A stretch of DNA of 64,000 bases from a virus (IMGVR_UViG_3300035180_001680); one strand, 5' to 3'; positions 3,328 to 63,094 are shown, counted from the first letter of the stretch. Numbers and translations are program-made. Notes: a model not told the origin generated them from the letters alone.

Positions 3328-4056
3328 ATGAGCCTCTCTGCGGAACAAAAACAATTGGTAATTCGAACCGTTGCCCATTTCACAGAAATGGGCAACAAGA
3401 AATTCGGTATCAACATGGCTGTTCCTACAACTCTTTTTAATAAGAGAGGAACTACTGCTGGTGAAGCCTCTTATAGTACACACACAGTCAATTTCAATGC
3501 TGATATGTGTGCTCAAAACTTCGATGAGTTTATCAACCAGGTTGTTCCACATGAGGTTGCCCACCTCGTTACACATGAAAAGTACAGCAAAGGTACCAAA
3601 CGATTCAACAACGTAAAAGCTCATGGACATGAATGGCGTCATGTTATGGTTACATTTGGCTTGTCACCTGACCGTTGTCATAAAATGGACGTCAGTGAGT
3701 TCAAACAACAACGAACCAAATATGAATATGTGTGCCCATCGTGTGGTCGCAGCTACAAAGTTGGTGGAAAGATTCACAACAATATTCAGGGTGGTAAAGT
3801 TTACGTCTGTAAATGCAAAGGTCGTTTATCACCAAATAGTGTGGTAGGTGTCCAAGCACCTACTGCCAAAAAGAAAGTGGAAACTACTACTGTCACCACT
3901 TCACGTGAAGGTTCCAAAAAGGATCGTGCAGAACGATTATACGCTGATTTCTCAACCAAAAGCCGTGAATTCATCATTACACTATTCATGAGTGAGTTGG
4001 ACATGACCAAGGCAGGTGCGTCCACTTACTACGCAAATTGTAAGAAGAAGTTTTAA
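3328..4056 (+). CDS. SprT-like zinc metalloprotease with C-terminal repeated helical domain
   Basis: PHEVAH zinc motif, HGHEWRHVM, YxCxxC, plus C-terminal MTKAGASTYYANCKK. Confidence 0.85.
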   Translation: MSLSAEQKQLVIRTVAHFTEMGNKKFGINMAVPTTLFNKRGTTAGEASYSTHTVNFNADMCAQNFDEFINQVVPHEVAHLVTHEKYSKGTKRFNNVKAHGHEWRHVMVTFGLSPDRCHKMDVSEFKQQRTKYEYVCPSCGRSYKVGGKIHNNIQGGKVYVCKCKGRLSPNSVVGVQAPTAKKKVETTTVTTSREGSKKDRAERLYADFSTKSREFIITLFMSELDMTKAGASTYYANCKKKF

Positions 4057-7435: not shown

Positions 7436-7525
7436 AATGTCAACAAGAGAGATCGAAAGATCTCTCTTGACTTTTGACCCGAATTGTTGGAAAATGATTT
7501 TGTTTGCTAATCAACCGAGACTATC

Positions 7526-7738
7526 ATGAGCACTGGTTATTCGTTACACTGTTCGGGTTTTGTTAGGTTGAATTGCAAGTGACGATTTCATGGAAGGACA
7601 AAGTGGGTAGGTAGAGGGTTACTAGTAATCAATTCCGACAGTGATGATCGGATGTTGATAGGACGATATGTCGTCTTTTCTGGTAACTCATCAAGAATCC
7701 AAACAGTTCTTGACGCACTAGATTTTGATGAAGAATAG
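7526..7738 (+). pseudogene. small ORF interrupted by in-frame TGA (7580-7582)
   Basis: MSTGYSLHCSGFVRLNCK*RFHGRTKW...DFDEE* reads on in frame; lies downstream of promoter 7467-7495. Confidence 0.35.
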
Positions 7739-7797
7739 TTGACATTGTTACCCTAATGTAGGACAATGTCTTTGTTGAAACGAACTAAATCAATGTC

Positions 7798-8199
7798 ATG
7801 TCCGATATGAAAAAAGTTTGGCGTGTTGAAAATTCCAAAGGTGTTGGAATGTACAACTGGGGAACCACAGCCCTAAATCACATGGGAGGGGGAAAACGAC
7901 ATCCTGGTCCATCTTCTGTAAATCAAAATACTGATTTTGGTATTAGTTATTTTTTTGACTATATTCTTTCAGCAAAAGAAGTCCGTAATTGGAAGTTTGG
8001 CTTTGCTTCTTTGGAACAAGCGAAACGTTGGATTTACAGTGCACAGATTCGTAGGCTACTTCGCAACGAGGGGCACTTACTGAACTGCTATGAAGTTCCA
8101 AAAGATTCATTTCACAAAAGTTATCACCAAGCCATATTCGATAGTTCCAAAGCAAAACTAATCGAGACAAGATGTGTTACGTTTTGGGATGAACGTTGA
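7798..8199 (+). CDS. hypothetical protein, possibly ADP-ribosyltransferase-like fold
   Basis: VWRVE...HPGP...FGFASLEQAKRW pattern; the ORF is secure, the fold call is weak. Confidence 0.6.
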   Translation: MSDMKKVWRVENSKGVGMYNWGTTALNHMGGGKRHPGPSSVNQNTDFGISYFFDYILSAKEVRNWKFGFASLEQAKRWIYSAQIRRLLRNEGHLLNCYEVPKDSFHKSYHQAIFDSSKAKLIETRCVTFWDER

Positions 8200-8250
8200 T
8201 GTAACAAGTGTGAAGAGGACTCGAGAAAAAGTCAATGGTATATTAGTACT

Positions 8251-8350
8251 GTTGACTTTTATTTTGTGTTCTAAAACTTGACTTGTATACCTCTCCCCTG
8301 AATCTTGATTTCATAAAGACATTATACCTCAAACTGTCCCAAAAGTCAAC
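8251..8350 (-). repeat. Element copy A (promoter plus short transcript-like core)
   Basis: 8285-8350 is identical to 9431-9496 (66 bp); minus strand reads TTGACT-17-TATAAT. Confidence 0.9.
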
Positions 8351-8413
8351 TGTTGACTCTTTACCTCAAATGTTGGACAATGTCCTCATTGAATAATTCA
8401 ACTGGAGATAGAA

Positions 8414-8665
8414 ATGTTCGCTACTAAACAAGACTTCACTGATGTACTCAAAAACAATGTGTGTCGTGTTGTCTTTCGTAAGAAGGATAGTTCCGAACGT
8501 GTGATGTACTGCACTCTTCAACACAACGTCATTGAAAGTAATGGGTTGACTCCTAATGGAACTGGTCCTATCGTTCCTGACAATCAGGTTCGTTGTATCG
8601 ATACTAACCTTATGGAGTGGAGAAGTTTCAACATCGATACTGTACTTCAGTTTGAGGTGGTGTAG
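8414..8665 (+). CDS. WYL_2/DUF2693-like Sm/SH3 beta-barrel protein
   Basis: VVFRKKDSSERVMYCTL...DTNLMEWRSF pattern; GGAG RBS. Confidence 0.7.
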   Translation: MFATKQDFTDVLKNNVCRVVFRKKDSSERVMYCTLQHNVIESNGLTPNGTGPIVPDNQVRCIDTNLMEWRSFNIDTVLQFEVV

Positions 8666-9378
8666 TAGACAGACACTACTGTTTACTAGTAAGCAACTTT
8701 CAAAAATAATCACTTTCAGAACCTATCTCATTTTATTTTTCACATATCTGAATCCTCTCTCTTCAGATAGCTCTTTAAGGGGAAGCATCATGCTTCCCCT
8801 CTTTTTTGAGCGTAGCACTCACTCCAAACACAAAGACACAAAGATGTACACATAACACAAATGGGAAGATAATTGACTACCCAGCAGCAAGGAATGCTAC
8901 CAATTATAGACATTCATACAACACACAGCAGTGTCTGAAACGTACAACAGTATTGTATTGGGTTGATGATTACTGAATGAGGGTAAGTGTACTCAATGTA
9001 TTGAACTGATTATTCAACCACACCAACAATTATGAAGTGTGTACCTTTATTCTGTCTACTTGGTAAAGGGAAACGTGATACCCGACACACATGGGTAAAC
9101 ATGGAAGGTTGGGTTGTTGGGTACAATGAGAGACGGTATGGTAAGACAGTGTTCACATACTGAATGTAATCACTGTGGTGAACAACCTACAAAGAGAGCA
9201 AAAATTTGGACCCTTTTCAGTTATAATCAAAGTTATATACCTATAACTTTTACTGATCAACACGAGTTCTTATCAAATTTGTGTATCTCCCGATCAGGTT
9301 TACTTATCACGACGGGGGGTTGAAAAATGTGGGGTGGGGTGAGTAAGTGAGGTGAGATTAGAGTGGTCTTGTTTGAAA

Positions 9379-9496
9379 GTCAACTGTTGATCTTTTTATT
9401 TTTCGTTAAAACTGACCTGTACTCGAGATCGTATACCTCTCCCCTGAATCTTGATTTCATAAAGACATTATACCTCAAACTGTCCCAAAAGTCAAC
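9379..9496 (-). repeat. Element copy B
   Basis: 9431-9496 equals copy A core; 9379-9424 is the exact reverse complement of 9862-9907. Confidence 0.9.
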
Positions 9497-9560
9497 AGTT
9501 GACTTTTTCTTAAAAGGGTAATACAATATCTTTTCTAAAACGTTATAAAGAGAGAAAGAA

Positions 9561-9755
9561 ATGACAGTACTACAACTGATCAAGTCTCTGATGTCTGTCG
9601 AAGACAAATCCATTAATGTAATTATTACGGTTGAGTCGGGGTTGAGTTGTTTATCTTCAAGTGATGTGTTCGGTCAAGAAACATACAGAGAAGATGAAAA
9701 TGGTGAGTCGTATAACGTTTTTGTTATCGAAGGTGAAGAGACAAGTTTCGAGTAA
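9561..9755 (+). CDS. hypothetical protein
   Basis: Follows promoter 9499-9527; lies between copies B and C. Confidence 0.6.
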   Translation: MTVLQLIKSLMSVEDKSINVIITVESGLSCLSSSDVFGQETYREDENGESYNVFVIEGEETSFE

Positions 9756-9791
9756 TTATCTTTAAAGAAAAAGTCAACGATGAAATGTTCG

Positions 9792-9907
9792 TTGACTTTT
9801 TCCCCTTTTAGAGAGATAATGTACTCGAAATCAGGAATTCAGGGGAGAGGTATGGAGTTTAGAGTACAGGTCAGTTTTAACGAAAAATAAAAAGATCAAC
9901 AGTTGAC
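9792..9907 (+). repeat. Element copy C (points toward the C-free cassette)
   Basis: TTGACT 9792-9797, 17 bp, GATAAT 9815-9820; 9811-9885 is an inverted repeat of 11769-11843 with 1 mismatch. Confidence 0.9.
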
Positions 9908-10026
9908 TTCTTTAAGTTCTTGGTGTTCGAATTTCAAAACATACTCTATACAAAAAGTCAACTGATTAATTCTGAAACATACTTTATACAAAAAGTCAAC
10001 TTTTATTAATTAAAATAGATGGGGTA

Positions 10027-10054
10027 TTGTGTTTTTGTGTGGGTGTGGTAGAAT
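10027..10054 (+). promoter_or_regulatory. C-free extended -10 promoter (TTGTGT...TGG TAGAAT)
   Basis: Near-identical copy at 11401-11429 with a 17-bp spacer; a third TAGAAT at 10129-10134. Confidence 0.65.
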
Positions 10055-10182
10055 GGGGGTGTGGTGTGTAGGGGGTGTAAAGTATTGTTTTTAGTGAGAA
10101 AGTTGTGGAGTTTTTTGAAAGTTTGTAGTAGAATGTTTGTGTTGTTGAGAGAGAAGTTAATTTGATTTTTAGGAGAGTGAAA

Positions 10183-10755
10183 ATGTTGAAAATGATTAAT
10201 AATGAAATGAATGTGGGTTTTGATGAATTAGTTAATGTGTTTGTTAGTAAGTTTGAAGAAAAGTTGTATGTAAAGAAAGAGAGTTTGAGTAAGAGTATTA
10301 AAGAAGTAAAGAGTAATGTTGAAAAGTTGAAAAAAGAAGTATTGGGTAAAGTTAATTTGAGTAAGTATGAAATTGTTATTGATGTATTAGGTTTGAAATG
10401 TAAAGTTAATAAAGATAGTATAAGTGTTTATTTTAGTGAAGATAGAAAGAAAAGTAGTTATATTGATTTTGTTGTTTATATGTATGATGTAAATGATAAG
10501 AGTTTGGGGTATTGTGTTAATAGTAAGAGAATTAATGTTGATATAGATGTTGATGATGTTGTTGAATATGAGAGTTATATTAGTGAATTAAATAAGTTGA
10601 ATGAAGAATTAATTGAAGTGGTAAATGAAATAAAGAGTATTAGTAGAAAGGAAAGGAGTATTAGGAGTAAGATTAGTGAAATGAAATTGAAAGAGTGTGG
10701 TTTAGAAGAATTGTTGGGAAATGATGAAATAATGAAATTGATTGAATTGAAATAA
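10183..10755 (+). CDS. C-free gene 1, coiled-coil protein (190 aa; no Ala/Pro/Thr/Gln/His)
   Basis: AGGAG RBS at 10171-10175, ATG at 10183, long open frame. Confidence 0.85.
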   Translation: MLKMINNEMNVGFDELVNVFVSKFEEKLYVKKESLSKSIKEVKSNVEKLKKEVLGKVNLSKYEIVIDVLGLKCKVNKDSISVYFSEDRKKSSYIDFVVYMYDVNDKSLGYCVNSKRINVDIDVDDVVEYESYISELNKLNEELIEVVNEIKSISRKERSIRSKISEMKLKECGLEELLGNDEIMKLIELK

Positions 10756-10806
10756 AATAGAATTGTGGTGGTTAGGGAGTTTTTTAATTATATAGAGGAT
10801 TAAAAA

Positions 10807-11388
10807 ATGAGTAATGAAATGGTTTATGTTATTAATGTGAATAATGAATTTGTTTTGGAATGTAAAAAAGTATTGATTGAAGATGTTGTTGATGTGTTTT
10901 ATAGTAGAGAAGAAATGAAAGAAATGGGATGGAGATATAGAGATGTGAGTTTAAAAAAAGGTAGAATTAAAGAGTATTTAAATGGTTTAGTAAAAGAAAT
11001 GAAAGATAGTGGAAAAAAGAGTATTAAATTGAGTAGTTTGTTTGTTGGTGTTTGTAAGAGTTATGGTTTAAAGATTAGTGAATATGTTGAAGGTGTGAGG
11101 AGATTAAATAATAAGTTGTTTTTGTATGAAAAGAAAAAGAATAGTTATAGTAAAAGAGATGTAATTAATTTTGTGGATATGGGAGTAATGTTAATAAGAA
11201 AGAAGTATGGGATTGAATTAGATATAAAGAATGTGAGTTATAGTTATGATGGTTGTGTGAAAGTTGTAAAAGATTTGATTAGTTTATATGAATTGTGTAG
11301 TTATAAAGGAAGTAGGTTTATAGTGGAAAAAGAATGGATTGAAATGATTTATAATAAAGAAGGGGAATTGTTTAAGAAGAAAGAATGA
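10807..11388 (+). CDS. C-free gene 2 (193 aa; no Ala/Pro/Thr/Gln/His)
   Basis: GAGGA RBS, ATG, long open frame. Confidence 0.85.
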   Translation: MSNEMVYVINVNNEFVLECKKVLIEDVVDVFYSREEMKEMGWRYRDVSLKKGRIKEYLNGLVKEMKDSGKKSIKLSSLFVGVCKSYGLKISEYVEGVRRLNNKLFLYEKKKNSYSKRDVINFVDMGVMLIRKKYGIELDIKNVSYSYDGCVKVVKDLISLYELCSYKGSRFIVEKEWIEMIYNKEGELFKKKE

Positions 11389-11400
11389 AATAAAAAGTTG

Positions 11401-11429
11401 TTGTGTTTTTTGTGTGGGTGTGGTAGAAT
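11401..11429 (+). promoter_or_regulatory. C-free promoter, second copy
   Basis: TTGTGT-17-TAGAAT with TG extension, preceded by AAAAAGTTG as in normal promoters of this region. Confidence 0.7.
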
Positions 11430-11448
11430 AGTGGTGTTGATAATATGA

Positions 11449-11691
11449 ATGGAAAAAGAAATGAAAGTTGAAATTATTAGTGTTATGTTTGAAGATAATA
11501 TTAGTAATTTTTGTGGTGGAGGTTTTTGTAAAGTTGAATGTAGTGGAGAGAATATTGAAGATTGTGTAGTGAATGATTATTATAAAGGAGATTGTGAATT
11601 TGATTTAGATATAGATTTAAGATATAAGGTAGAAGAAGATGTTTATTATTTGAGAAATAGAGAGAGATTGTTAATTATTAAAATAATTTAA
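11449..11691 (+). CDS. C-free gene 3 (80 aa, acidic, Cys-rich)
   Basis: Follows promoter 11401-11429; open frame. Confidence 0.7.
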   Translation: MEKEMKVEIISVMFEDNISNFCGGGFCKVECSGENIEDCVVNDYYKGDCEFDLDIDLRYKVEEDVYYLRNRERLLIIKII

Positions 11692-11708
11692 AAAGTTGTT
11701 GACTTTTT

Positions 11709-11740
11709 AAAAATGACCTGACCTAAGTCAAGTCATTTTT
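11709..11740. terminator. bidirectional intrinsic terminator closing the C-free cassette
   Basis: AAAAATGAC-C-TGAC ctaa GTCA-A-GTCATTTTT hairpin with A/T tails. Confidence 0.65.
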
Positions 11741-11754
11741 TATTTTTATAAAAG

Positions 11755-11862
11755 TTGACTTTTATTCATTTCGTTAAAACTGACCTGTTCTCTAAACTCC
11801 ATACCTCTCCCCTGAATTCCTGATTTCGAGTACATTATCTCTCTTTTTGACCCTAAAGTCAA
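11755..11862 (-). repeat. Element copy D (points toward the C-free cassette)
   Basis: Minus strand reads TTGACT-17-GATAAT; 75-bp inverted repeat with copy C. Confidence 0.9.
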
Positions 11863-12089
11863 CAGTTGACCAAATCCCCTAATTCAGATACAATGTCCTC
11901 ATTGAAATCAAAAATTATGTTTCATTTGGAGTAAATGGTATCATCTGTGTCGGTTCCGGCACCTGCCCTGAAATTGAGGGCACCGAAGAAGTTTTGGAAT
12001 ACATTGAAAGAATTTGTAACTAATTGTTGTCCTCAACCACAGTTTGTGTGACAATGGTCTCACTGAAACGTTAATTGAAAGGAAACAAA

Positions 12090-12518
12090 ATGACCAACAC
12101 CAAGACCTCCAAGAAATCGATTTTCATTTCCGCTTTCAACGCCCTGCCCGTTGACATGAAGCGCAAAGAAGCTCTTGCAATTCTCAGTGAACAATGTGGC
12201 CTTTCGATGGCAGGTGCAAGTACTTATTACGCCAACTGCAAGAGTGGTCTGTGGTCAACTGGAACTGTTCAAAAAGAATCGTATCTTGAAATGATCGCTT
12301 TGGTCACTGGTGAATATATTGCAAAGCATCGTGCAAAAGAACAGGCCAACAGGGCCGTTCAAAGTGTCACACAAAAATCTGAAAAGATCAACCTTGAAGT
12401 GATGACCGGTTCCGAACTGGTTGCTTTGTACAACAGTAAGGTCAGCGATGCCCAACAGATCGTCAAGTTCCGCAACAAGGCTGAAGGAATTAAACGAGTT
12501 GCCGCCCTTATCGGCTGA
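12090..12518 (+). CDS. two-domain hypothetical protein with N-terminal LSMAGASTYYANCK domain
   Basis: AAAGGA RBS; follows promoter 12027-12055. Confidence 0.75.
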   Translation: MTNTKTSKKSIFISAFNALPVDMKRKEALAILSEQCGLSMAGASTYYANCKSGLWSTGTVQKESYLEMIALVTGEYIAKHRAKEQANRAVQSVTQKSEKINLEVMTGSELVALYNSKVSDAQQIVKFRNKAEGIKRVAALIG

Positions 12519-12593
12519 AACTTTGAAATAAGTGTTGACATCTTATCTATAATAGGGTAAGATGTCTTCACTGTAACGAGAAAGAGATGAGCA

Positions 12594-12902
12594 ATGTCCA
12601 ATATAACTTTTCATAAAGAAGTTCGTACCATTTGTAGTAACTATGGTTGGGATGTTTACAGTACATACAACGACAAGGGTGTGACCCATCGAAGGGTATC
12701 GTATTCGAGGGTACCATATTTGAAGGTACCGTATTCGAAGTTCAATTGTAATGTTCCTGAAAAGATCAAGGCACATATCAAACAAGAAGTTGAACAACTG
12801 TTGTCCAATCATGGAGTGACTGGTCAAGTGTATTGGTTTGAGGCTCATTCGTATTATGGTAATGGACCCTACGACAAACTTTGTATCAAGATTCCTTTGT
12901 AG
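12594..12902 (+). CDS. hypothetical protein
   Basis: Follows promoter 12535-12563; hairpin at 12918-12945 downstream. Confidence 0.7.
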   Translation: MSNITFHKEVRTICSNYGWDVYSTYNDKGVTHRRVSYSRVPYLKVPYSKFNCNVPEKIKAHIKQEVEQLLSNHGVTGQVYWFEAHSYYGNGPYDKLCIKIPL

Positions 12903-13037
12903 ATAGTTACAATGGCGAAGGTGCTCTATGGTGATAGGGCACCTTTGAAATAAAATTAAACAGTTGACTTTGCTATGCGTATGATGTATAATATATGTGT
13001 ATTAGGGGAGGGATGATTTTTTCCAATTTAAGTTGGT

Positions 13038-13188
13038 CCAATCTATCATTAACTATCTTCCAATCTATCATTAATCATTCTCCAATCCAATCCAATCCAA
13101 TCCAATCTATCATTAACTATCTTCCAATCTATCATTAACTATCTTCCAATCTATCATTAATCATTCTCCAATCTATCATTAACTATCA
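13038..13188. repeat. Tandem 22-bp repeat array (six units plus a CCAAT x4 insert); candidate origin iterons
   Basis: Units CCAATCTATCATTAACTATCTT / CCAATCTATCATTAATCATTCT start at 13038, 13060, 13102, 13124, 13146, 13168; no G on the + strand from 13037 to 13210. Confidence 0.9.
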
Positions 13189-13340
13189 CCCCACAATTAT
13201 TTTCCAACCCGCGTCACGATTTTTTTGTCACCCTAAAATAAACACCGCACTGTTTTTCCCATATGTGCAAAAATTTTTTGGCAAATTTTTTTCCCAAAAT
13301 CCAAAATTGTTTATAATCAACAGTTGACATATTCCCCTCT

Positions 13341-17997: not shown

Positions 17998-20900
17998 ATG
18001 TTATTTGATGGTATTACACTCAACGAAGGTTCGCATATTCTAAACGCATCGATTGAAAGTGGAGCAAGTTTTCCGCTTGTTCCTAATGTAGGAGAATTGT
18101 TTTACAAAACTAGCGTGGGACTTCATGTGTTTGATGGTTCTACGTGGAATTTGGTGAACACGTCTGACACCACATCATTCATATTGAAATCTGGCGGAAC
18201 AATGACTGGTTATCTTGTGTTGAATGATGACCCAACAACGAATCTACAAGCAGCAACTAAACACTATGTTGATAACTCTGTTGCATCGTATGCACCATTG
18301 ACAGGAACAGGGACTTCAGGAACTTGGGGTATTAGTATTACAGGAAATGCAGCTACTGTCACTACTAACGCCAATTTAACAGGAGTAGTTACATCAGTAG
18401 GAAACGCAACGTCTATCGGTGCTGGTGCAATTTCAAATACAATGTTAGCAAATTCTGCGGTTGCAAATTTGAGTGGTACTAATACAGGTGACCAAACAAT
18501 TTCTATTTCAGGTGACGTTACAGCTTCTGGGAGTACTGGAGTCTTAACAGCAACAGTAACAAAAATAAATGGGACGGATTTATCTGGATTGACAACCGGA
18601 TTATTAAAAAATACTACAGGAACTGGTGTTCCGTCTATTGCAGTTGCTGGGACAGATTATTTATTACCAACGGGGAGTGCTGCATCATTAACAAACTTCC
18701 CAACATTAAACCAAAATACAACTGGAAATGCCGCCACAGCTTCTGCTGTTCCATTCAGTGGAATAACAAGCAAACCCACAACATTATCGGGTTACGGAAT
18801 AACGGATGGACAGCCTCTAGACGGAGACTTAACTTCAATTGCTGGACTTGCTGGAACAAGTGGTCTTTTAAAGAAAACTGCCGCAAATACATGGGCGCTT
18901 GACACAAACACATATTTAACTTCCTCAACGGGTGTAACGTCAGTTGCAGGAACGGCTGGTAATATTACAGCAAGTGCATCTACAGGAGCCGTTACACTCA
19001 ACCTTGCAACTATTACAGATTCTGGTCTTGGTTCTTTCAAGAAGATAAACACAGATGGGTTTGGACGAGTAACAGGAACAACAACAGTAACTTCTTCTGA
19101 TATAACAACAACTCTTGGATATACTCCTGCGAATAAAGTTGGAGATTCTATCACAGGTAATTTTGTTTTTGATGGAGTTCATACGGTAACAGGGCTTCCT
19201 TCTCCTACAGGTGGAACAGATGCTGCAAATAAAAATTACGTTGATGCGGCAACTAACGGTCTCACATGGAAATCTGCTGTTCGAGTAGCATCGACTACAA
19301 ATATAAACCTTACCACAGGAGGACTCATTGCGGTAGATGGTGTTACAACCGTTGCAGGTGACAGAGTTCTCGTTAAAGATCAAACATTACCAAAAGAAAA
19401 CGGAATTTATATCGCTGGAACGGGTGCATGGACACGTGCTTCAGATATGAATTTAGCCAGTGAATTTGATGGTTCTGCAGTCTTTGTAAAAGAAGGAACA
19501 TTATATCAAAGTTCTGGTTGGACAGAAACAGCAACTGTGGTAACTGTAGGAACTGATACAGTTACATTTTCAGAGTTTACTGGTGGGGCTTTGTATACTT
19601 GGGGAGTAGGTTTAGCAAATACAGGAAATACAGTTAATATTCAATTGGGTGCAGGTATTGCTGAACTCCCAACAGACGAGGTTGGTATTGACGTATATTC
19701 TGGTGGCGGATTAATGCTAACAGTTGATGGAACAACATCTTCTACATCAACAGCAGCCCAAGTTTCATTAACTAAAGTTGGAACTTCTGGCACATACACG
19801 AGTGTTTCGACAGATTCATACGGTCGTGTTACAAGTGGAAGTAATCCAGCTACTGTTAATTCATTTAATACGAGAACTGGTTCTGTAACATTAACGAGTG
19901 GTGATGTTACATCTGCTCTGGGATCTACAACGGCTAATTATTTCCTTGCAACACCAAACGGTTCGACAGGAACTCCATCATTACGTGCAATAGTTGCAGC
20001 AGATATTCCAACATTAAACCAAAACACAACTGGAAATGCGGGAACAGCAACAATATTGCAAACTGGAAGAACGATTGCTCTTTCAGGTGCAGCTACAGGA
20101 ACAGCTACTTCTTTTGATGGTAGTGCAAACATCACCATCCCAGTCACCTCACTGAATGCAGCAAACTTATCTGGGACTATTCCTTCCGCAGTATTGGGAG
20201 CAAGTACAACTTATGTTGGAACAACAGCTGTTGCATTAAACAGAGCAAGTGCAGCTTTGGCATTAACTGGCATCACTGGAGTTTCGAGTACAGGCGCTTT
20301 GACGTTAAGTTCTACCACCACAAACGCTGTTACATTGGATTCTGGAACAACAGGTGCTGTTAATATTGGTAATAACGCAAACGCCAAAACCATCACTGTT
20401 GGTAACGTGACTGGTGCAACTGGTGTTGTTGTGAATAGTGGTACAGCTGGTGTGCTGTTCAATCAAGTACCAACTGGAACATTCGCTATAACGGCCACTG
20501 CTGCACCAACTACAGACATGACGCAGGTTACTGCTGCGGGAGTGGTAACTGCAGGTGTAAATGCATTGTCAGTGACGTATTCGGGTGGTGCTGCAGCAGT
20601 TGAGGCAAGTGCTGCGCGGCTCAACCTGACACCAGGCACAACATCCGGTGGTACTTGGTCAGCAATGAGGGTAACACCCTCGAGTGCTGCTGCTGCTGCT
20701 GGTGTTACAATGAACGGCGTGAAGTTTGATTCAGTAACTGCCGGCGCAGGTACTGACAACATGATTTATGCGGGTACCGGGTGGGACAACATCATAAGTT
20801 ATAACGGTACAAGTGTTGTGAACGGGTCCGGACAGCTGAATGCGGCCCAATTAACAGGTACTGTTCCTAGTGCTACTATTAGTGGGGCATACTCTGGCAT

Positions 20901-33025: not shown

Positions 33026-35548
33026 ATGAAAGCACAGATAGTAATTGGGGCAAATTTCGGAGACGAAGGGAAAGGTGGCACAGTTGATTATCTTGCTTCC
33101 CAAGTTGATAATACGATTGTTGTTCGGTTTAATGGAGGCTCTCAGGCAGGACATTGTCAAACTGGAGATACTTTAATCACAACTCAGTTTGGACTTAAAT
33201 ATATTAAAGATGTTGTGGGAAATATTACTAACAGCGATGTAAGTTTTCCGCTAATTAATATGAACGGAGATATTGAACACACGAGTTGGCTGTTCACCGA
33301 ACACTCAAAACAAGTAAACCGAATAACCCTTCAAAATGGAGTAGTACTTAAAGGGACTCATGCACACAAATACTATGTTTGGAATGGGAATACTGCTCAA
33401 CTTGAGTGGGTTAAAATAGGAGATTTAAACCCAAATGTCCACCAATTTATAGTTCCAAGATATTTCGACCAATATTTGGGTGTTATTCCTAACATTCAGT
33501 ACGTTCAATCAGAAACTGATCATGTTCACAATAAACGAAAGATTGATGTTGATATTATCGATCTTGAATTTTTAGCTTTTTTAACTGGAATTATTAATGG
33601 AGATGGACATTATGCTTCTCATGGAAGCCGAATTTCGATCCAATGTCACATTTCTCAACAGGACACAATTGATTATGTTGTTTCTGCGTTGACACTCATG
33701 AACATTCCTGTAAAAACACAGTCCCATCATTCGAGTGACCAATGTATTACTATTGCGTTTGAGAGTAGTGACCTTATTAACATTTTACGAGACCAATTGG
33801 GGGTTGCAATTACAACTGGTGTTAACAAGTGTACCCCAAAGTTTGTATTACAGGGTACCAGAGGTATAATTCGTAGTTATATACGAGGTTTGTTTGACGC
33901 AGACGGAACTATTAAATTTCATAAACAAAAAACAACCACATATGGTCAAATTGGGTTTTCTAACATATCTTGGGAACTGGTGTCAGAGGTCCAACAATTG
34001 CTGTATTTATTTGGAATTCACTCAAAAGTTATAACAAATAAATTAAATAAAAAGCGGTCAAATTGTCAACGATCGTATGATTTAATTATTGCATCATATG
34101 ATGCTATTGAATTGTTTGCACAAAACATAGGATTCCAGTCTGATATTAAAAACAATAAAGTGGTTGAGTTGTTGGCGTATAAACAAAACGCAAATAGTAA
34201 TTGTAACACCAAAGGATATGTACTTAAAGTCCCCCCAAATATCAAAAAGGCAATATATAAACAACTAAATTGTGTATGTCATGATAGTGAAGGAATCCGA
34301 ACTGGGTTTGTGGTCAACGAAAAGATTGAAAATTTTGAAAATATTGTAAACGTAGCAACGAACTATCATATAATCAATATTGAATCTGTTGACATGAATT
34401 TTAGTATCGAACAGGTATATGATGTTACGATGCCTATAACACATAGTTATATTGCCAATGGATGTATATCTCATAACACAGTAGAAACTCCCGAAGGCCT
34501 TCGTCATGTGTTCCATCATTTTGGATCAGGGACATTAATTGGAAAACCGACATATCTGTCAAGGTTTTTTGTCGTGGACCCAGTTGCTTTCTATTCTGAG
34601 CATAATTCTTTTAATCATAAGGGAATCAAGCCAAAAGTATTTGTTGATGTGAATGCCTATCTTGTAACTCCATTTGATGTAGCAATCAATCAAACTGTTG
34701 AACGCGCTCGTGGAGAACGTAAACATGGAAGTTGTGGGTTTGGAATCAATGAAACTGTTGAGCGCAATACGACTCGAGCATTTCCTGGGTTTGGTACAAC
34801 TGTTGCTGATATTCTTAATCCAGACGAACTTCGTAAGAAATTAAAACAAATTCGAGATGATTATACACAAAGCCGCCTTGAACAACTTGGGGTTGCATGT
34901 GGTGCTCTTGATGAGTTTTATATGTTTGTTGAAGCAATCGAATGGTTCATTGATCGGTGTATGTATATGCTGGAAAACATAACCACAGTTACCAACCCGG
35001 AGTTCCTACACAACTACGATACGGTTGTTTTTGAAGGTGCGCAGGGATTGTTGCTTGATGAATTTCACCACTGGTTTCCTCATGTAACTCGGTCAAGGAC
35101 AGGTGTGTTCAACGCTTGTGAAATTTTGAAAGAGATTGGAGTTCATGAAGCCGAAGTGTTCTATATCACTCGGTCGTACCTGACAAGACACGGAGCAGGG
35201 CCCTTGCCGTTTGAAGTAGATGGACCAATCTATGAAGGAATTATTGATAATACGAACGTTCCCAATGAACACCAAGGAACGTTGCGGTATGCACCACTGA
35301 ACTTTGATTTGTTGGAAGAAAGTATCATCAATGATTTGGAAACAGTGGCAGGTGTTAGATTGAGTCCGAAACTTGTTGTTACGTGCATGAACCAACTTCC
35401 TGAAAAAGTTAAGTATGTAGAAGACGGTGAAGTGGTCACTGGATGTAAATTTGATTTGATTTACAACCTTTCGTCTTTTGGTAAAAAATTTGATTCGGTG
35501 CTGTTGTCGTATAGTCCAACCAGGAATTTAATGTCCAGATTGGTGTAA
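33026..35548 (+). CDS. purA: divergent adenylosuccinate synthetase-family protein, intein-containing
   Basis: GDEGKG, GGSQAGH|T, EGAQG, TRHGAGPL; spliced product about 399 aa. Confidence 0.85.
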   Translation: MKAQIVIGANFGDEGKGGTVDYLASQVDNTIVVRFNGGSQAGHCQTGDTLITTQFGLKYIKDVVGNITNSDVSFPLINMNGDIEHTSWLFTEHSKQVNRITLQNGVVLKGTHAHKYYVWNGNTAQLEWVKIGDLNPNVHQFIVPRYFDQYLGVIPNIQYVQSETDHVHNKRKIDVDIIDLEFLAFLTGIINGDGHYASHGSRISIQCHISQQDTIDYVVSALTLMNIPVKTQSHHSSDQCITIAFESSDLINILRDQLGVAITTGVNKCTPKFVLQGTRGIIRSYIRGLFDADGTIKFHKQKTTTYGQIGFSNISWELVSEVQQLLYLFGIHSKVITNKLNKKRSNCQRSYDLIIASYDAIELFAQNIGFQSDIKNNKVVELLAYKQNANSNCNTKGYVLKVPPNIKKAIYKQLNCVCHDSEGIRTGFVVNEKIENFENIVNVATNYHIINIESVDMNFSIEQVYDVTMPITHSYIANGCISHNTVETPEGLRHVFHHFGSGTLIGKPTYLSRFFVVDPVAFYSEHNSFNHKGIKPKVFVDVNAYLVTPFDVAINQTVERARGERKHGSCGFGINETVERNTTRAFPGFGTTVADILNPDELRKKLKQIRDDYTQSRLEQLGVACGALDEFYMFVEAIEWFIDRCMYMLENITTVTNPEFLHNYDTVVFEGAQGLLLDEFHHWFPHVTRSRTGVFNACEILKEIGVHEAEVFYITRSYLTRHGAGPLPFEVDGPIYEGIIDNTNVPNEHQGTLRYAPLNFDLLEESIINDLETVAGVRLSPKLVVTCMNQLPEKVKYVEDGEVVTGCKFDLIYNLSSFGKKFDSVLLSYSPTRNLMSRLV
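33155..34477 (+). mobile_element. intein with LAGLIDADG homing endonuclease (441 aa)
   Basis: Starts CQTGDT, ends ANGCISHN followed by Thr; internal FLTGIINGDG and YIRGLFDADG. Confidence 0.92.
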
Positions 35549-36012: not shown

Positions 36013-36104
36013 AGTTCTTGTAAAGGGCAAACCAATTCGAAAGATTGGGACGCAAAGTAACCCGGCCTAAAGAGAAATCCATGGCAGCGGAACTACCTGG
36101 AATC
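36013..36104 (+). ncRNA. c-di-GMP-I (GEMM) riboswitch
   Basis: AGGGCAAACCAATTCGAAAGATTGGGACGCAAAG...CCGGCCTAA...GGCAGCGG...TACC matches the GEMM-I consensus with GAAA tetraloop; G at the Vc2 G20 position. Confidence 0.9.
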
Positions 36105-36143
36105 TTCTTAGATGTAACACTAATCTAATTGGAGATCCAAAAA

Positions 36144-36902
36144 ATGAAAAAAACCCTTATTGCTCTTGCTCTTGCTTCAATCTCTACTGCTGCCTTTGCT
36201 ACTGGTTCCGACGCTACTGTTTATGCAAATAGTCAAACGTCTACCTATGCCCAAGCTGGTAATGGTGGTACTTCCCATTCAACTGCTGGCAACTTTGCAG
36301 TTGGCGCTGGCGACACCGATTCTAATGTTCGTCGTGGGATGTTGTCCGTTACCGTTCCCAACTGTAACGTTCCAACCACAGCTACTGTGTTTGGTGATGT
36401 CACTACAGTAACTGGTGAAGCATCCACTATGGGTGGCTCGTTTGCTAAGAACGTTTCTACAGGAAACGGTACTGGTGAAGCCCACGCACTTGGTGTAGCT
36501 GTTTCCGACGTAGCTAAAACACGTAATGGTGTTGGTGGAACTGCAAGCGCGTTGACCAAAACTTGGGCAAATGCCGGAACTGATCAAAGTCACTCGTCTT
36601 TTGCTTCACAAAGCGCCAACTTCGAAGCACAGGGTGCAACTGGTTTGTTGATTGTTACCCACGACGAGACCGCCAGCATCCATCACCACACCGTCACTAT
36701 TCCTCACGTTGACTACGTTGGAGTTGGTGCTGCATCCACTGGTACCTCTGACGTTCCTGCTGCACATCAGGTGTATAGCTTGAGCAACGGTGGTTGCCAC
36801 GGTGGTTGCCAAACTGGTCCAGGTAATGATGATGCTGGTAGCTACACCAATGCGAACGCAACTACACTGACTAACGTTACCTACGGCAACATTCCTCAGT
36901 AA
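36144..36902 (+). CDS. secreted G/A/S/T-rich protein
   Basis: Signal peptide MKKTLIALALASISTAAFA; GGAG RBS directly after the riboswitch. Confidence 0.85.
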   Translation: MKKTLIALALASISTAAFATGSDATVYANSQTSTYAQAGNGGTSHSTAGNFAVGAGDTDSNVRRGMLSVTVPNCNVPTTATVFGDVTTVTGEASTMGGSFAKNVSTGNGTGEAHALGVAVSDVAKTRNGVGGTASALTKTWANAGTDQSHSSFASQSANFEAQGATGLLIVTHDETASIHHHTVTIPHVDYVGVGAASTGTSDVPAAHQVYSLSNGGCHGGCQTGPGNDDAGSYTNANATTLTNVTYGNIPQ

Positions 36903-59519: not shown

Positions 59520-60839
59520 ATGAGTTTTCAAATTTTGGACCGAAGAAAGAATGGTAAAAATAAAAGCTCTGCAAATCGTCAGCGTTTTATCCGGCGAGTA
59601 AAAAGTAGAGTTCGGGAAGCTGTTAAGAAATCTATCACATCGGGAAACATTCGTGATATTATTTCACCTGGCGACCAGAATGTTAATATCCCAACAAAAG
59701 ATATTAATGAACCTCATTTTACTCATTCGTCTGATTCAGGTGAACTTGAACGTATCTTACCTGGAAATAAAAAATATGTTCCAGGAGACAGAATCCCAAA
59801 ACCACCTCCTCAAGATGGTAAGGGTGGGAATGGTTCCGGTGGAGGTGGTGAACAGAACGATGACTTTGAGTTCGCTATTACTCACGACGAATACATGGAT
59901 GTGTTCTTTGAAGATTTGGAGCTTCCCGATTTAGTTAAAAAGGGGCTTGCTCAAACAGAAGAAATAAAGGTAAAACGAGCTGGGTTTGCTGTTGATGGTA
60001 ATCCAAGTAAATTAAACTACGTACGTTCTCTTCGACAGTCAGTTGGACGGCGGGCTGCTTTACGTACTCCAAAAAAACGAAAACTACGAGAGCTAGAAAC
60101 AGAACTTTCGGAACTTTATGAATTCATTGAAAATAATAAAGATGAAAATGGAAATCTAATAACGGAGTGTGAAGAACAACAACTTCGGATTATTCAACTT
60201 GAACATGAAATAGCTGTTCTTAAAAAGAAAATTAAGGCTGTTCCATTTATTGATTCAATTGATTTGCGTTATAACAGATTTGAGATAGTTCGAACCCCAA
60301 TTACTCAAGCTGTGATGTTTTGTGTCATGGACGTATCTGGTAGTATGGGTGAATATGAAAAAGATTTAGCAAAACGATTTTTCATGTTATTGTATTTATT
60401 TCTACACCGAAATTACAAATATGTGGATGTCGTATTTGTTAAACATCACACAGCAGCTTTTGAAGTAGACGAAGAAAACTTCTTTTATTCTCGTGAATCA
60501 GGCGGAACCATGGTTTCTTCCGCAACAACTCTCGTGAAAAACATAATTGAAGAACGATATGATCCATCGAAATGGAACATTTATGTGTGCCAAGCAAGTG
60601 ATGGAGATAACGATGTGGATGATTGTCAACAGGTTGTCGAAACGCTTATTAAAGATATTCTTCCTATGTCACAATATTATGCTTACGTCCAAGTTAATAA
60701 TCCTGATAACATCATGTCGCAGGTATACCAACATTACTTATTGGGGAAACATGAGAATTTTGCAATGGCTATAATTGAAGAACCAAGTGATATATATCCT
60801 GTTTTCCACAACCTATTCGAAAAGGACACATCCAAATGA
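59520..60839 (+). CDS. yeaH: YeaH/YhbH (DUF444) vWA-like protein
   Basis: KSSANRQRF, MDVSGSM, RESGGT, QASDGDN. Confidence 0.92.
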   Translation: MSFQILDRRKNGKNKSSANRQRFIRRVKSRVREAVKKSITSGNIRDIISPGDQNVNIPTKDINEPHFTHSSDSGELERILPGNKKYVPGDRIPKPPPQDGKGGNGSGGGGEQNDDFEFAITHDEYMDVFFEDLELPDLVKKGLAQTEEIKVKRAGFAVDGNPSKLNYVRSLRQSVGRRAALRTPKKRKLRELETELSELYEFIENNKDENGNLITECEEQQLRIIQLEHEIAVLKKKIKAVPFIDSIDLRYNRFEIVRTPITQAVMFCVMDVSGSMGEYEKDLAKRFFMLLYLFLHRNYKYVDVVFVKHHTAAFEVDEENFFYSRESGGTMVSSATTLVKNIIEERYDPSKWNIYVCQASDGDNDVDDCQQVVETLIKDILPMSQYYAYVQVNNPDNIMSQVYQHYLLGKHENFAMAIIEEPSDIYPVFHNLFEKDTSK

Positions 60840-63094
60840 GTGAACCAATTACCACGTCAAGTGATTGGAATTTTGAATTAATTGAAAAGTTTTATAAAGA
60901 AATAGAAACCATTGCTGTAGAAGAACTGGGTTTGGACGTATATCCAAACCAAATTGAAGTGATTTCTGCAGAGCAGATGTTGGACGCATATTGTATAACT
61001 CCTGACCACAAATTGTTAAAACAAGATTTGAGTTGGATTGAGGCAGGTAATATTAAGGTTGGTGATGTGGTGTTAGGATTTGACGAACATGGACCTCATC
61101 GTAGATATCGTTCTGCGATCGTTCAAGGTGCAGAACGAGTTACAAAACCGGTATATTGTGTTACTTTATCATCTGGAAAGCAATTTAAAGTAACAGGTAA
61201 TCACTTGTGGCTTGTTCGACAGCAAAAGGGAGCAACATCTGTGCTTCAGTGGAGAGCAACAACACAACTACGAACAACAAAAGATACAAGATTTTCCGCA
61301 TCTCGTATACCTAAATTAATGGATGTGTGGTCTGAAATAAACACCAAAGACGCTGGCTGGCTGGCTGGTATGTATGACGGTGAAGGAAATATTATTCGTG
61401 GATCAGTACAGGCGTTGTGTATTTCCCAGAATGAAGGTCCGACCTTAAACAAAATCAAACAAATAATTGGCGAATTGGGATATACGTTCTATCAAGCTGA
61501 TAAAAAGTCAGGACGGGGGATTTGTAAGACAATTGGATTAACTGGTTCTTCCAGTGCAGATCAACTTCGTTTCTTAGGAGAAATTCGTCCTGAACGAATT
61601 ATTTCAAAGATATCTTTTGACCAACTAGGTTTAATGAAGACGTCCAATTACGAAGAGGTGGAATCAGTACAATTAATTGGTGACCTTGAAATTGTAAAGA
61701 TTACAACATCAACCGGCACCTTCGTTTGTGATGGTTATCCAATGCACAATTCAAGTGTTGGGATGCCAATTATGTACAACCACTGGTCGTTTGGTAAAGA
61801 CTTCATCACAAACAATAATGGCTACAAACAAGGTCAAATGGGTCTTGCATATGAAATTGTATTGAATACTAATCCATGCCTTGTGTATTTAATGGAAGAG
61901 AATACCATGATGATGCAAGCATTGGTTATAGCTCATGCTGCTTTTGGACACAATGCTTTTTTTAAGAATAACTATTTGTTTAAAGAATGGACGCAAGCCG
62001 ACACAATCGTTGATTATCTGGTATTCGCGAAGCATTATATTTCCGAGTGTGAGGAGAAATATGGTGTTCAACAAGTTGAGAGTTTGTTGGATGCTTGCCA
62101 CGCTCTCCAAAATTATGGTGTGGACAAATACCACCGTTCTGGAAAATTGTCTGTTGAAAAAGAACGAGCAAAACAGAATGAACGAGCGATTTATGTTCAA
62201 AGTCAACTAAACGATTTGTGGAGAACAATTTCAGGTTCCCAAGATGTTGTTGTGGACAAGGGAACGAATGATGTGTTCCCTGCTGAACCACAGGAAAATA
62301 TATTATATTTCTTGGAGAAACATTCCCCGAACCTTGAAACATGGCAACGAGAGATTATTCGTATTGTTCGTAAGATCGCTCAATATTTCCACCCTCAGAG
62401 AGCCACAAAAGTAATGAATGAGGGTTTTGCGACCTTTATCCATTACACAATCATGCAACGGTTGAGAGAAAAAGGATTAATTACGGATGGGTTTATGATG
62501 GAATTTCTTCGGGATCATACTAACGTTGTAATGCAACCATCATTTGAGTCAAAATATTTTAGTGGACTAAATCCATATGCACTCGGATTTGCAATGTTTC
62601 AGGACATTCGACGTATTTGTGAGAATCCTACTGAAGAAGACAAACGTTGGTTCCCTGAATGGGCTGGGGATCCTGACTGGATAAGCGTTGTCAAGCATGC
62701 CGTTGTGAATTTTAAAGATGACGGTTTCATTTTACAGTTCTTGTCTCCGACAGTAATGCGCAACATGAAGATGTTTTCTTTGAAAGATTCTCGCAATGAA
62801 CATAACTATGAAGTAACAGCAATTCATAATGATGAAGGATTTAAACATATTCGTAGAGTTCTTTCCGAACAACACAACCCATCTTTGTTAATCCCAGATA
62901 TTCAAGTTGTAAGGGTTGACAAGTGGGGAACACGAAAATTATTACTTCAACACAATATCGTTGATGGGAAGTTATTGGATGCGAAACAAGCTGATAGAGT
63001 AGTATCATTAATACATACTCTTTGGAAATACGATGTGGTATTATGCTCTGTTGATGATAGAGGACAGGTAAAAGCTACACATTATTCCTTATAA
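60836..63094 (+). CDS. spoVR: SpoVR/YcgB family protein, intein-containing
   Basis: QMLDAY|SSVGMP..Y.HWSFGK, AYEIV, AHAAFGHN.FF, TKVMNEGFA. Confidence 0.92.
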   Translation: MSEPITTSSDWNFELIEKFYKEIETIAVEELGLDVYPNQIEVISAEQMLDAYCITPDHKLLKQDLSWIEAGNIKVGDVVLGFDEHGPHRRYRSAIVQGAERVTKPVYCVTLSSGKQFKVTGNHLWLVRQQKGATSVLQWRATTQLRTTKDTRFSASRIPKLMDVWSEINTKDAGWLAGMYDGEGNIIRGSVQALCISQNEGPTLNKIKQIIGELGYTFYQADKKSGRGICKTIGLTGSSSADQLRFLGEIRPERIISKISFDQLGLMKTSNYEEVESVQLIGDLEIVKITTSTGTFVCDGYPMHNSSVGMPIMYNHWSFGKDFITNNNGYKQGQMGLAYEIVLNTNPCLVYLMEENTMMMQALVIAHAAFGHNAFFKNNYLFKEWTQADTIVDYLVFAKHYISECEEKYGVQQVESLLDACHALQNYGVDKYHRSGKLSVEKERAKQNERAIYVQSQLNDLWRTISGSQDVVVDKGTNDVFPAEPQENILYFLEKHSPNLETWQREIIRIVRKIAQYFHPQRATKVMNEGFATFIHYTIMQRLREKGLITDGFMMEFLRDHTNVVMQPSFESKYFSGLNPYALGFAMFQDIRRICENPTEEDKRWFPEWAGDPDWISVVKHAVVNFKDDGFILQFLSPTVMRNMKMFSLKDSRNEHNYEVTAIHNDEGFKHIRRVLSEQHNPSLLIPDIQVVRVDKWGTRKLLLQHNIVDGKLLDAKQADRVVSLIHTLWKYDVVLCSVDDRGQVKATHYSL
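60992..61750 (+). mobile_element. intein (253 aa) with probably degenerate LAGLIDADG domain
   Basis: Starts CITPDH, ends FVCDGYPMHN followed by Ser; WLAGMYDGEG. Confidence 0.9.

Follow-up and report, generated by a model that had tools for sequence, protein, structure and literature searches.

The 64,000-nt stretch of viral DNA analyzed here (IMGVR_UViG_3300035180_001680; hereafter the window) carries four copies, designated A to D, of a short unit built around a sigma-70-type promoter sequence. These copies are most likely paralogous early-promoter modules of the promoter-early stem-loop (PeSL) type, in a variant that is gene-less and mostly inverted. The units are 100 to 119 bp long, and all four lie within 3.6 kb of the window. 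They are repeats with a common architecture and inverted ends, they meet neighboring promoters in palindromic junctions, they are mosaics of one another, and strains present in other samples differ by whole modules at the ends of the units. The promoters would be active early in infection through the host polymerase, recombination between modules would have shaped the region, and the short transcripts of the units would lack a function of their own. The region offers a sequence-level example, from four samples, of how repeated promoter modules serve an uncultured phage of ~338 kb as sites for the gain, loss, and rearrangement of early genes.

Architecture of the four units

Copies A (8251–8350), B (9379–9496), and D (11754–11863) are on the minus strand and copy C (9791–9909) is on the plus strand, which confirms the positions and strands in an initial annotation of this DNA. 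All four are intergenic. Open reading frames (ORFs) of at least 100 aa are nearly all on the plus strand; C is the sole copy oriented with the genes, and A, B, and D are opposed to them. Each copy starts with TTGACT-17-(T/G)ATAAT, as annotated. A and B have TTGACT-17-TATAAT, which agrees with 11 of 12 consensus positions, and C and D have TTGACT-17-GATAAT (10 of 12). These are the best consensus promoters of the region, and apart from those of A, B, and D no strong promoter is found on the minus strand of the first 13.4 kb. The −35 and −10 boxes of A are located at 8344–8349 and 8321–8326, while the promoters of C and D span 9792–9820 and 11862–11834, respectively. Each promoter is followed by the conserved core TTCAGGGGAGAGGTAT (8287–8303 in A, 9837–9853 in C, and 11801–11817 in D), the 17 nt of which are identical in all four copies, whereas spacers and leaders differ. 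Searched as a 16-mer, the core has four exact occurrences in the window and none elsewhere at up to three mismatches. Shuffled controls gave a mean of 0.35 occurrences, and none of 100 shuffles reached four.

Outside the identical core, the two copy types (A/B and C/D) have diverged to ~75% mean column identity. A and B share 66 identical bp (8285–8350 = 9431–9496), just as had been annotated. The perfect inverted repeat between B and C exists as well, with a length of 48 bp (9377–9424/9862–9909) rather than 46 bp, and the inverted repeat with one mismatch between C and D is 76 bp long (55 + 1 + 20) rather than 75 bp and extends to 91 bp at 84/91 identical positions. A repeat finder reported A/B as 78 nt at 97%, B/D as 64 nt at 80%, and the inverted pairs C/D and B/C as 91 nt and 73 nt, both at 92%. 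The copies are mosaics: A combines a type I 5′ half with a tail type of its own, B is a chimera of the 5′ half of A (over the 66 bp) and the 3′ half of C (over the 48 bp), and C and D, both of type II, resemble each other throughout. The copies have no ORF in common, as the initial annotation stated, since a 1-nt indel within the core region separates A/B from C/D and shifts the reading frame. ORFs that extend across the copies use different frames and continue through the promoters.

At its start, every copy has GTTGACTTTT (or a one-off variant), and at its end the reverse complement, AAAAGTCAAC; both are present in A. The GTCAAC-containing tail noted previously is real and corresponds to one arm of this 10-bp terminal inverted repeat, which bounds every copy. 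The end motif GTTGACTTTT includes the −35 box TTGACT, and wherever a copy and a forward promoter adjoin, their back-to-back −35 boxes form a near-perfect palindrome of 20 to 22 bp. This arrangement occurs at three sites: 8341–8362, between A and forward promoter 8353–8381 [gene 8414–8665, WYL_2/Sm-like]; 9487–9508, between B and forward promoter 9499–9527 [gene 9561–9755]; and 11854–11875, between D and forward promoter 11866–11894. Additional palindromic junctions are located at the tail ends of B (9375–9396, imperfect) and C (9891–9912).

With a longer spacer between the same end arms, strong stem-loops result. The stem-loop at 8225–8264 (−17.7 kcal/mol, z −6.3) is composed of both end motifs around a loop of 14 nt; the tail end of A forms the right arm, and the structure is terminator-like on both strands. 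On the plus strand after gene 9561–9755, the 3′ arm of the stem-loop at 9767–9802 (−19.4 kcal/mol, z −7.8) is the −35 box of C, giving a complete PeSL-type terminator–promoter unit. A second clear unit of this type, with a different stem sequence, is found at the forward promoter 7467–7495, where the 3′ arm of an upstream stem-loop of −22.2 kcal/mol runs into the −35 box. Two tandem 38-bp repeats on the plus strand (9930–10005), each ending in AAAAAGTCAAC, look like promoter remnants that keep only the −35 box. Motif AAAGTCAAC occurs 10 times in the window, seven of them between 8342 and 11855.

The units share their design with the other early promoters of this phage. A strict promoter pattern identifies 20 forward sites in the first 13.4 kb, positioned before most of the small genes, and many of these promoters then carry a common leader, gtcytyattgaa, which is also present in A to D (compare promoters 11866 and 54349). 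The first part of the annotated core (GAAATCA...) is this common leader, and the G-rich part is a strong Shine-Dalgarno sequence at the usual place. The assigned ATG is found 27–33 nt past the −10 box in 12/12 forward promoters that have a downstream gene assigned, a count from which C itself, promoter 12964 (start unclear), and promoters 5944, 7467, and 11866 (no gene assigned) are left out. A Shine-Dalgarno is present in all four copies, and an ATG follows at 31 nt in C (position 9852) and D only; A and B read ATA at the homologous position. No cargo gene is located behind the copies (0, 12, or 18 codons). The ORF of C has 12 codons and that of D has 18; C may, in addition, feed the cassette toward which it reads, and D faces the terminator at 11709–11741. 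Judged from the DNA, the A–D unit is the standard early expression signal of the phage without a gene behind it. A −10-like GGTATAC in the core, ~26–30 nt into the transcript, was considered as the site of a sigma-dependent pause and set aside.

Strain variants and the C-free cassette

Copies C (plus strand) and D (minus strand) face a cassette without cytosine (C-free), as the initial annotation had pointed out. The uninterrupted C-free run on the plus strand is 1702 nt long (10001–11702), starts right after a motif copy (9990–10000, AAAAAGTCAAC) at the left edge marked by the −35-only repeats, and ends inside GTTGAC (11698–11703); the GC skew is 1.0 over 1.7 kb. It comprises three ORFs (10183–10755, 10807–11388, and 11449–11691) and, on the same strand, three copies of a C-free extended −10 promoter (10032–10062, 10112–10142, and 11407–11437). 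A hairpin with U-runs on both strands (11709–11741, −12.3 kcal/mol, z −4.25) is the predicted end of the cassette and D transcripts. A 5′–3′ panhandle of a C-to-D read-through mRNA was rejected, as it would need read-through of this terminator. The G-rich and C-poor sequence at ~9315–9378 resembles the start of the cassette.

The three cassette proteins use none of the amino acids P, T, A, H, and Q. A homologue of the second protein, P0002 (86% identical), is encoded on another contig of 8.7 kb and is likewise devoid of these five residues; their absence in P0002 too makes the C-free trait look selected. In Pfam, the cassette proteins gave weak matches only (E 0.0002 to 0.04), none at the curated cut-off; they have no PHROG family, and the Atlas search gave nothing usable, the best score of 0.85 to Nmad5 being a lead only. 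A literature search on cytosine-free coding strands in phages found no mention of "cytosine-free". One idea is that the cassette transcripts would need no CTP, or that a nuclease or chain terminator directed at C would not affect them.

Contigs of four public runs (X1–X4) were aligned on 7800–12600 at 85% likeness. These are short de Bruijn contigs, in which joints below 95% likeness or with sides of fewer than 30 letters can stem from repeats; the sides here are 30–77 letters. X1, which may be the sample that the window comes from, agrees with the window, and its sole joint in the region is a 50-nt tandem variant at 9249–9298, a variant found in three runs. One contig each of X2 and X3 joins 9790 to 11754, skipping 1963 nt with 10 shared letters (X3, depth 352.9 and side 77; X2, depth 10.4). 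The depth in X3 is 320–355 over the flanks versus ~30–43 over the cassette, a difference of about 10-fold. The main X3 strain, with the 9790→11754 joint, therefore lacks both copy C and the cassette, and one D copy in minus orientation is left. In both X2 and X3, the left neighbor of the gene-9561 module is a D-type promoter end (11863→9501, with 15 other letters between) and not an A-type end as in the window. An X3 contig has D-type sequence at both ends of the gene-9561 module, and as its depth equals that of the chromosome it reads as a chromosomal arrangement.

The cassette of X4 has diverged (over 1821 letters, 60 differ and 47 are gaps) and is preceded by a minus-oriented D-type promoter end. 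The joint (11858→9896, 12 shared letters) has its breakpoint in the palindromic junction at the tail of C, and compared with copy C of the window, the element to the left of the cassette thus appears to be flipped. Further X4 joints connect 9385 to 11754 (D-type tail) and another D-type promoter end to 9487. Depths in X4 (joint 16, flanks 15–17, cassette 16.5) would fit a minus-copy arrangement better than a deletion variant. One scenario that accommodates the joints, and not a unique one, is that in X4 gene 9561 and the cassette are each flanked on both sides by minus-oriented copies, that X3 corresponds to the X4 arrangement without the cassette, and that in the window strain the left copy became inverted and the 5′ half of B was converted to the A type.

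A similar exchange is seen to the right of D, where a 161-bp module (11890–12050, plus strand) lies between promoter 11866–11894 and a second promoter, TTGTCC-17-GACAAT (12027–12055). In X2 and X4 contigs, position 12051 is directly preceded by 24 letters equal to 11866–11889, i.e., the module is absent. As a result, the −35 box and spacer of the first promoter are followed by the −10 box of the second, as if a crossover had occurred inside the two −10 boxes. The initial annotation suggested that the repeats are recombination arms that can invert or mobilize the cassette. The mosaic copies, and the absence elsewhere of the cassette together with C, with the joint at the element ends, argue for mobilization. 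In contrast, inversion of the whole 9.8–11.85-kb segment was not seen among the X1–X4 contigs (0/6 joints labelled as strand change), and the other orientation appears only for the small left-hand element in run X4. The C-free three-gene operon is movable cargo carried by only part of the population, which gives a handle for asking what its purpose is.

Each module consists of a palindrome or stem-loop over the −35 box, a predicted sigma-70-type promoter, a leader, and a Shine-Dalgarno. In the mechanism that we propose, homologous or microhomology-guided recombination between modules, or between their junctions, would insert, delete, convert, and flip neighbors. The palindromes of abutting modules are direct and inverted repeats at once, so that the same sites would permit deletion, insertion, and flipping; moreover, they are possibly break-prone (cruciform or hairpin cutting), which would lead to more exchange there. 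In the window strain the cassette is positioned between inverted copies, and a crossover between the flanking copies would hence invert rather than excise it. The copy transcripts (~85–125 nt, with those of A and D predicted to end at flanking hairpins) are probably a by-product, C excepted, as it can feed the cassette. Recombination of this kind would explain the opposed orientation of three of the four copies, the chimeric copies, and the movable C-free cargo.

Competing explanations

Several observations weigh against the PeSL-type interpretation. The joints are derived from short contigs, repeats break contigs, and the X4 module order is not uniquely determined. Of the four copies, A, B, and D run counter to the genes, and no gene follows any of these three. 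As hairpins, the tight palindromes are weak (−2.5 to −6.6 kcal/mol; −4.0, −6.6, and −2.7 kcal/mol for the junctions at A, B, and D, and −3.1 and −2.5 kcal/mol for the tail ends of B and C), the terminator half of a PeSL is clear only at 8225–8264 and 9767–9802, and an obvious upstream stem-loop is present in only four to five of the 20 forward promoters. The likeness to T4 rests on few genes in the window, and no homologue of the element was found in the other phages or metagenome collections scanned. Reversed, gene-less units and palindromic back-to-back −35 junctions are not found in the available portions of the published PeSL descriptions (PMC2839356, PMC4122927). Moreover, the 17-nt core is identical between the diverged types, that is, as conserved as the promoter hexamers, and the X3 and X4 strains appear to keep a minus-oriented copy at each junction; core identity and persistence of the minus copies hint at a function of the copies themselves. 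Finally, good hairpins with U-runs lie next to A and D and would yield discrete short RNAs from them.

These last points bear on the suggestion, close to that in the initial annotation, that A to D are genes for short trans-acting early RNAs of ~85–125 nt whose unstructured 5′ part, with its very strong Shine-Dalgarno-like stretch, could titrate ribosomes, a GGAG-cutting RegB-like nuclease, or a CsrA/RsmA-type protein, with recombination being secondary. The near-consensus promoters (11/12 and 10/12), their status as the only strong ones on the minus strand, the invariant core amid differing spacers and leaders, the predicted A and D transcripts ending at strong hairpins with U-runs (~90 and 120 nt), and the minus-oriented copies seemingly kept at junctions in other strains are all in keeping with it. 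However, the predicted A, B, and C transcripts fold no better than shuffled sequences (z −0.06, +1.05, and +0.93), and D does so (z −2.99) only through the 11709–11741 hairpin, which is outside the repeat. RNAalifold on the four transcripts gave no pairs, and no Rfam match reached the gathering score; at E up to 5 there were only sub-threshold matches on hairpins or terminators. Each copy has one to three GGA, none of them in a hairpin loop, the ends of B and C are only the weak palindromes given above, and the position of the core is precisely that of the ribosome site in the early genes, with an ATG after it in C and D. In addition, no copy was found outside this phage lineage in the collections scanned. 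With no fold signal, consensus pairs, or Rfam match and with few GGA, the annotated paralogous small RNA, or decoy for CsrA/RsmA or ribosomes, is not supported, and we regard the small-RNA explanation as rather unlikely. A combined version appears less likely again: the −35/−35 site would be an orientation-blind exchange site and the units adaptor modules, whose DNA installs, flips, and locks cargo and whose unstructured transcripts (85–125 nt), equipped with an exceptionally strong ribosome-binding stretch, act in trans, for instance as a decoy for ribosomes or a Shine-Dalgarno-cutting nuclease. If true, the units would represent a mobile small-RNA gene family that doubles as the cassette-exchange system of the phage. 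Still more doubtful is that the transcripts are mRNAs for micro-proteins, of 12 and 18 residues in C and D, from the ATG 31 nt past −10, and of 23 and 26 residues in A and B, from a leaderless AUG 6 nt past −10. In C and D, a strong Shine-Dalgarno is indeed accompanied by an ATG at the modal distance, and their ORFs differ at a single codon within the first 11; A and B have an ATG at the expected start of transcription. Nevertheless, the frames of A/B and C/D differ and the products are unrelated, A and B lack the C/D start (ATA), and the ORFs end at differing places in the AT-rich tail.

Three additional explanations concern what the DNA of the units might do. That the minus copies serve the forward promoters, either as a divergent partner raising negative supercoiling or as an insulator with hairpins, would agree with the position of A, B, and D back to back with forward promoters of weaker −10 boxes (GACAAT, TACAAT, and TACAAT) and with a layout of hairpin, reverse unit, and forward promoter that recurs three times; yet 17/20 forward early promoters, as well as C, are without such a partner, which makes this role very improbable. 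There is similarly little chance that the units are non-autonomous elements of the miniature inverted-repeat transposable element (MITE) type, or that a dedicated site-specific recombinase or nuclease, and not passive homologous recombination, acts at their junctions in an integron-like exchange. The 10-bp terminal inverted repeats on units of 100–119 bp, the joints on end motifs with 0–12 shared letters, and the junction core GTTGACT, which differs from the integron GTTRRRY at one position, would be expected from such elements, and the available text of Comeau et al. 2014 (PMC4122927) leaves site-specific recombination open for PeSLs. Against this, no target-site duplication flanks any copy, all copies are within 3.6 kb instead of dispersed, and the cassettes carry their own promoters. 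Also, the 32 early ORFs of the window include no integrase or transposase; one weak match to a transposase-labelled PHROG (E 0.00095, ORF 3328–4056) lies beneath stronger families of unknown function. The least credible proposal is that A to D are R-loop-type replication origins, like oriF and oriG of T4, at which a G-rich transcript hybridized over an AT-rich unwinding element would prime DNA synthesis. A strong promoter is indeed followed by a G-run in the RNA and then by an AT-rich tail, and the units adjoin the 1.7-kb block with a GC skew of 1.0, but the T4 origins use middle-mode promoters, the G-run is short, and the four copies are in both orientations.

Genomic setting and comparison with known systems

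A 338,129-nt contig encodes a protein of the window. The first ~17 kb of the window contain small genes, mostly orphans, with 25/32 early ORFs being without a PHROG family. An RNase H-like ORF is located at 249–821, and further on there are genes for long-tail-fibre-like (distal-subunit-like) and tail-fibre-assembly-like proteins, NAMPT, NMNAT-Nudix, PrkA, DUF444, and SpoVR. An affinity to T4-type phages is suggested by a few of these genes, i.e., the RNase H-like, the long-tail-fibre-distal-subunit-like, and the KVP40-style NAD/PrkA genes. Other features of the window include a c-di-GMP-I riboswitch (RF01051, 64.2 bits) at 36016–36100, before ORF 36129–36902, an adenylosuccinate-synthetase-like ORF (33026–35548) with intein splicing and LAGLIDADG domains, and a SpoVR-like ORF (60836–63094) with a weak intein-splicing match. 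Closer to the units, ~700 nt after gene 8414–8665 (8666–9374) seem to be non-coding, with a strong terminator at 8778–8800; the small ORFs 9032–9163 and 9126–9323 were rejected as genes because X3 contigs have 1-nt indels inside both. Between promoters 12964 and 13324, short tandem repeats (ATTGGA-type, ~22-nt units) are found at 12995–13210, and the plus strand has a G-free run of 174 nt (13037–13210).

Searches for relatives were directed at both the element and its neighborhood. Megablast and blastn of 7500–12500 against GenBank phage records gave no match. The nearest record (G001) has no match to 8200–12000 and does not cover the region; its only matches are two of ~87 nt near 18.2 kb. 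In viral contigs the core 16-mer was found at 11 loci, none with shared flanks, and these were rejected as chance matches. Neither a tail 20-mer in viral contigs nor a 26-base degenerate core in metagenome contigs gave any hit, and protein-guided locus searches with genes 7798–8199, 12087–12518, and 10807–11388 found no relative. The junction palindrome is present at five loci in viral contigs. The three that were searched (L014, L016, and L017) do not hold the element, as they match 8200–9950 only over 20–29 nt at palindromes or other short stretches. Locus L017 (IMGVR_UViG_3300037851_000359, 19076–19894) belongs to an unrelated 137-kb viral contig and has the same 19-bp −35/−35 palindrome, after which come a −10 box, then a Shine-Dalgarno and an ATG. 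From this locus, palindromic −35 junctions may recur in other phages.

Sponge RNAs of the CsrB/RsmY/RsmZ type have many GGA, mostly in hairpin loops, and a stable multi-hairpin fold. The predicted transcripts of A to D are also short, derive from strong promoters, and contain GGA, but with one to three GGA, none in a loop, no stable fold, and no Rfam match, they lack the features of a sponge. MITEs are defined by terminal inverted repeats, target-site duplications, and dispersed copies. Inverted ends are present here, but the flanks are not duplicated and the copies are clustered. In integrons, the attC site has a GTTRRRY core in an imperfect palindrome, the IntI integrase is adjacent, and the cassettes are promoterless. 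The cassettes of the window resemble this in being bounded by imperfect palindromes with a GTT-starting core and in being present or absent between strains. They differ in that the sixth position of the core (GTTGACT) is C, that no integrase is found among the early ORFs of the window, and that the cassettes have their own promoters, the site itself being a promoter −35 box.

The PeSLs provide the closest comparison. The available text of the two PeSL papers (Arbiol et al. 2010, PMC2839356; Comeau et al. 2014, PMC4122927) describes them in the T4-type phages RB49/phi1, T4/PST, and KVP40/nt-1 as intergenic units of hyperplastic regions. Besides an AT-rich stretch and a stem-loop, they contain a sigma-70-like promoter followed by a Shine-Dalgarno and the start codon (ATG) of the gene that comes next. 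When two PeSLs recombine, the intervening genes are reported to be lost or gained, the resulting PeSLs are chimeric, and mini-circles arise (PMC2839356, PMC4122927). The parts at hand also describe subclasses in which the stem-loop overlaps the −35 box (PMC2839356) and degraded PeSLs near indels with only the −35 box (PMC4122927). Likewise, the units of the window are intergenic repeats in the orphan-gene-rich early region of a large myovirus, with predicted near-consensus sigma-70-type promoters at N17 spacing. The stem-loop is shared only in part: one of −19.4 kcal/mol overlaps the −35 box of C and one of −17.7 kcal/mol flanks the tail of A, but the palindromes over the −35 boxes at the A, B, and D junctions are weak. 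A Shine-Dalgarno and, in C and D only, an ATG are present at the 3′ end. Chimeric copies exist, close relatives differ by an indel of the DNA between two copies, and degraded −35-only copies lie next to indels.

There are, however, differences. A to D carry no cargo gene and therefore do not include the start of a downstream gene, and three of the four copies point against the genes. The copies pair with forward promoters via perfect −35/−35 palindromes, such that the sites can act either way. Moreover, the element seems to be flipped between strains, and most of the palindromes are weak hairpins. Given this mixed outcome, we class the units as a PeSL variant and not as plain members. The comparison extends the PeSL idea in that palindromic junctions built from −35 boxes would support deletion, insertion, and inversion. 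It also calls for caution in predicting small RNAs in phage early regions, as recombination would leave gene-less, reversed promoter units that resemble small-RNA genes. Arrays resembling PeSLs have been published before, and what the present units add to them (the lack of genes, the mostly reversed orientation, and the palindromic junctions) is modest.

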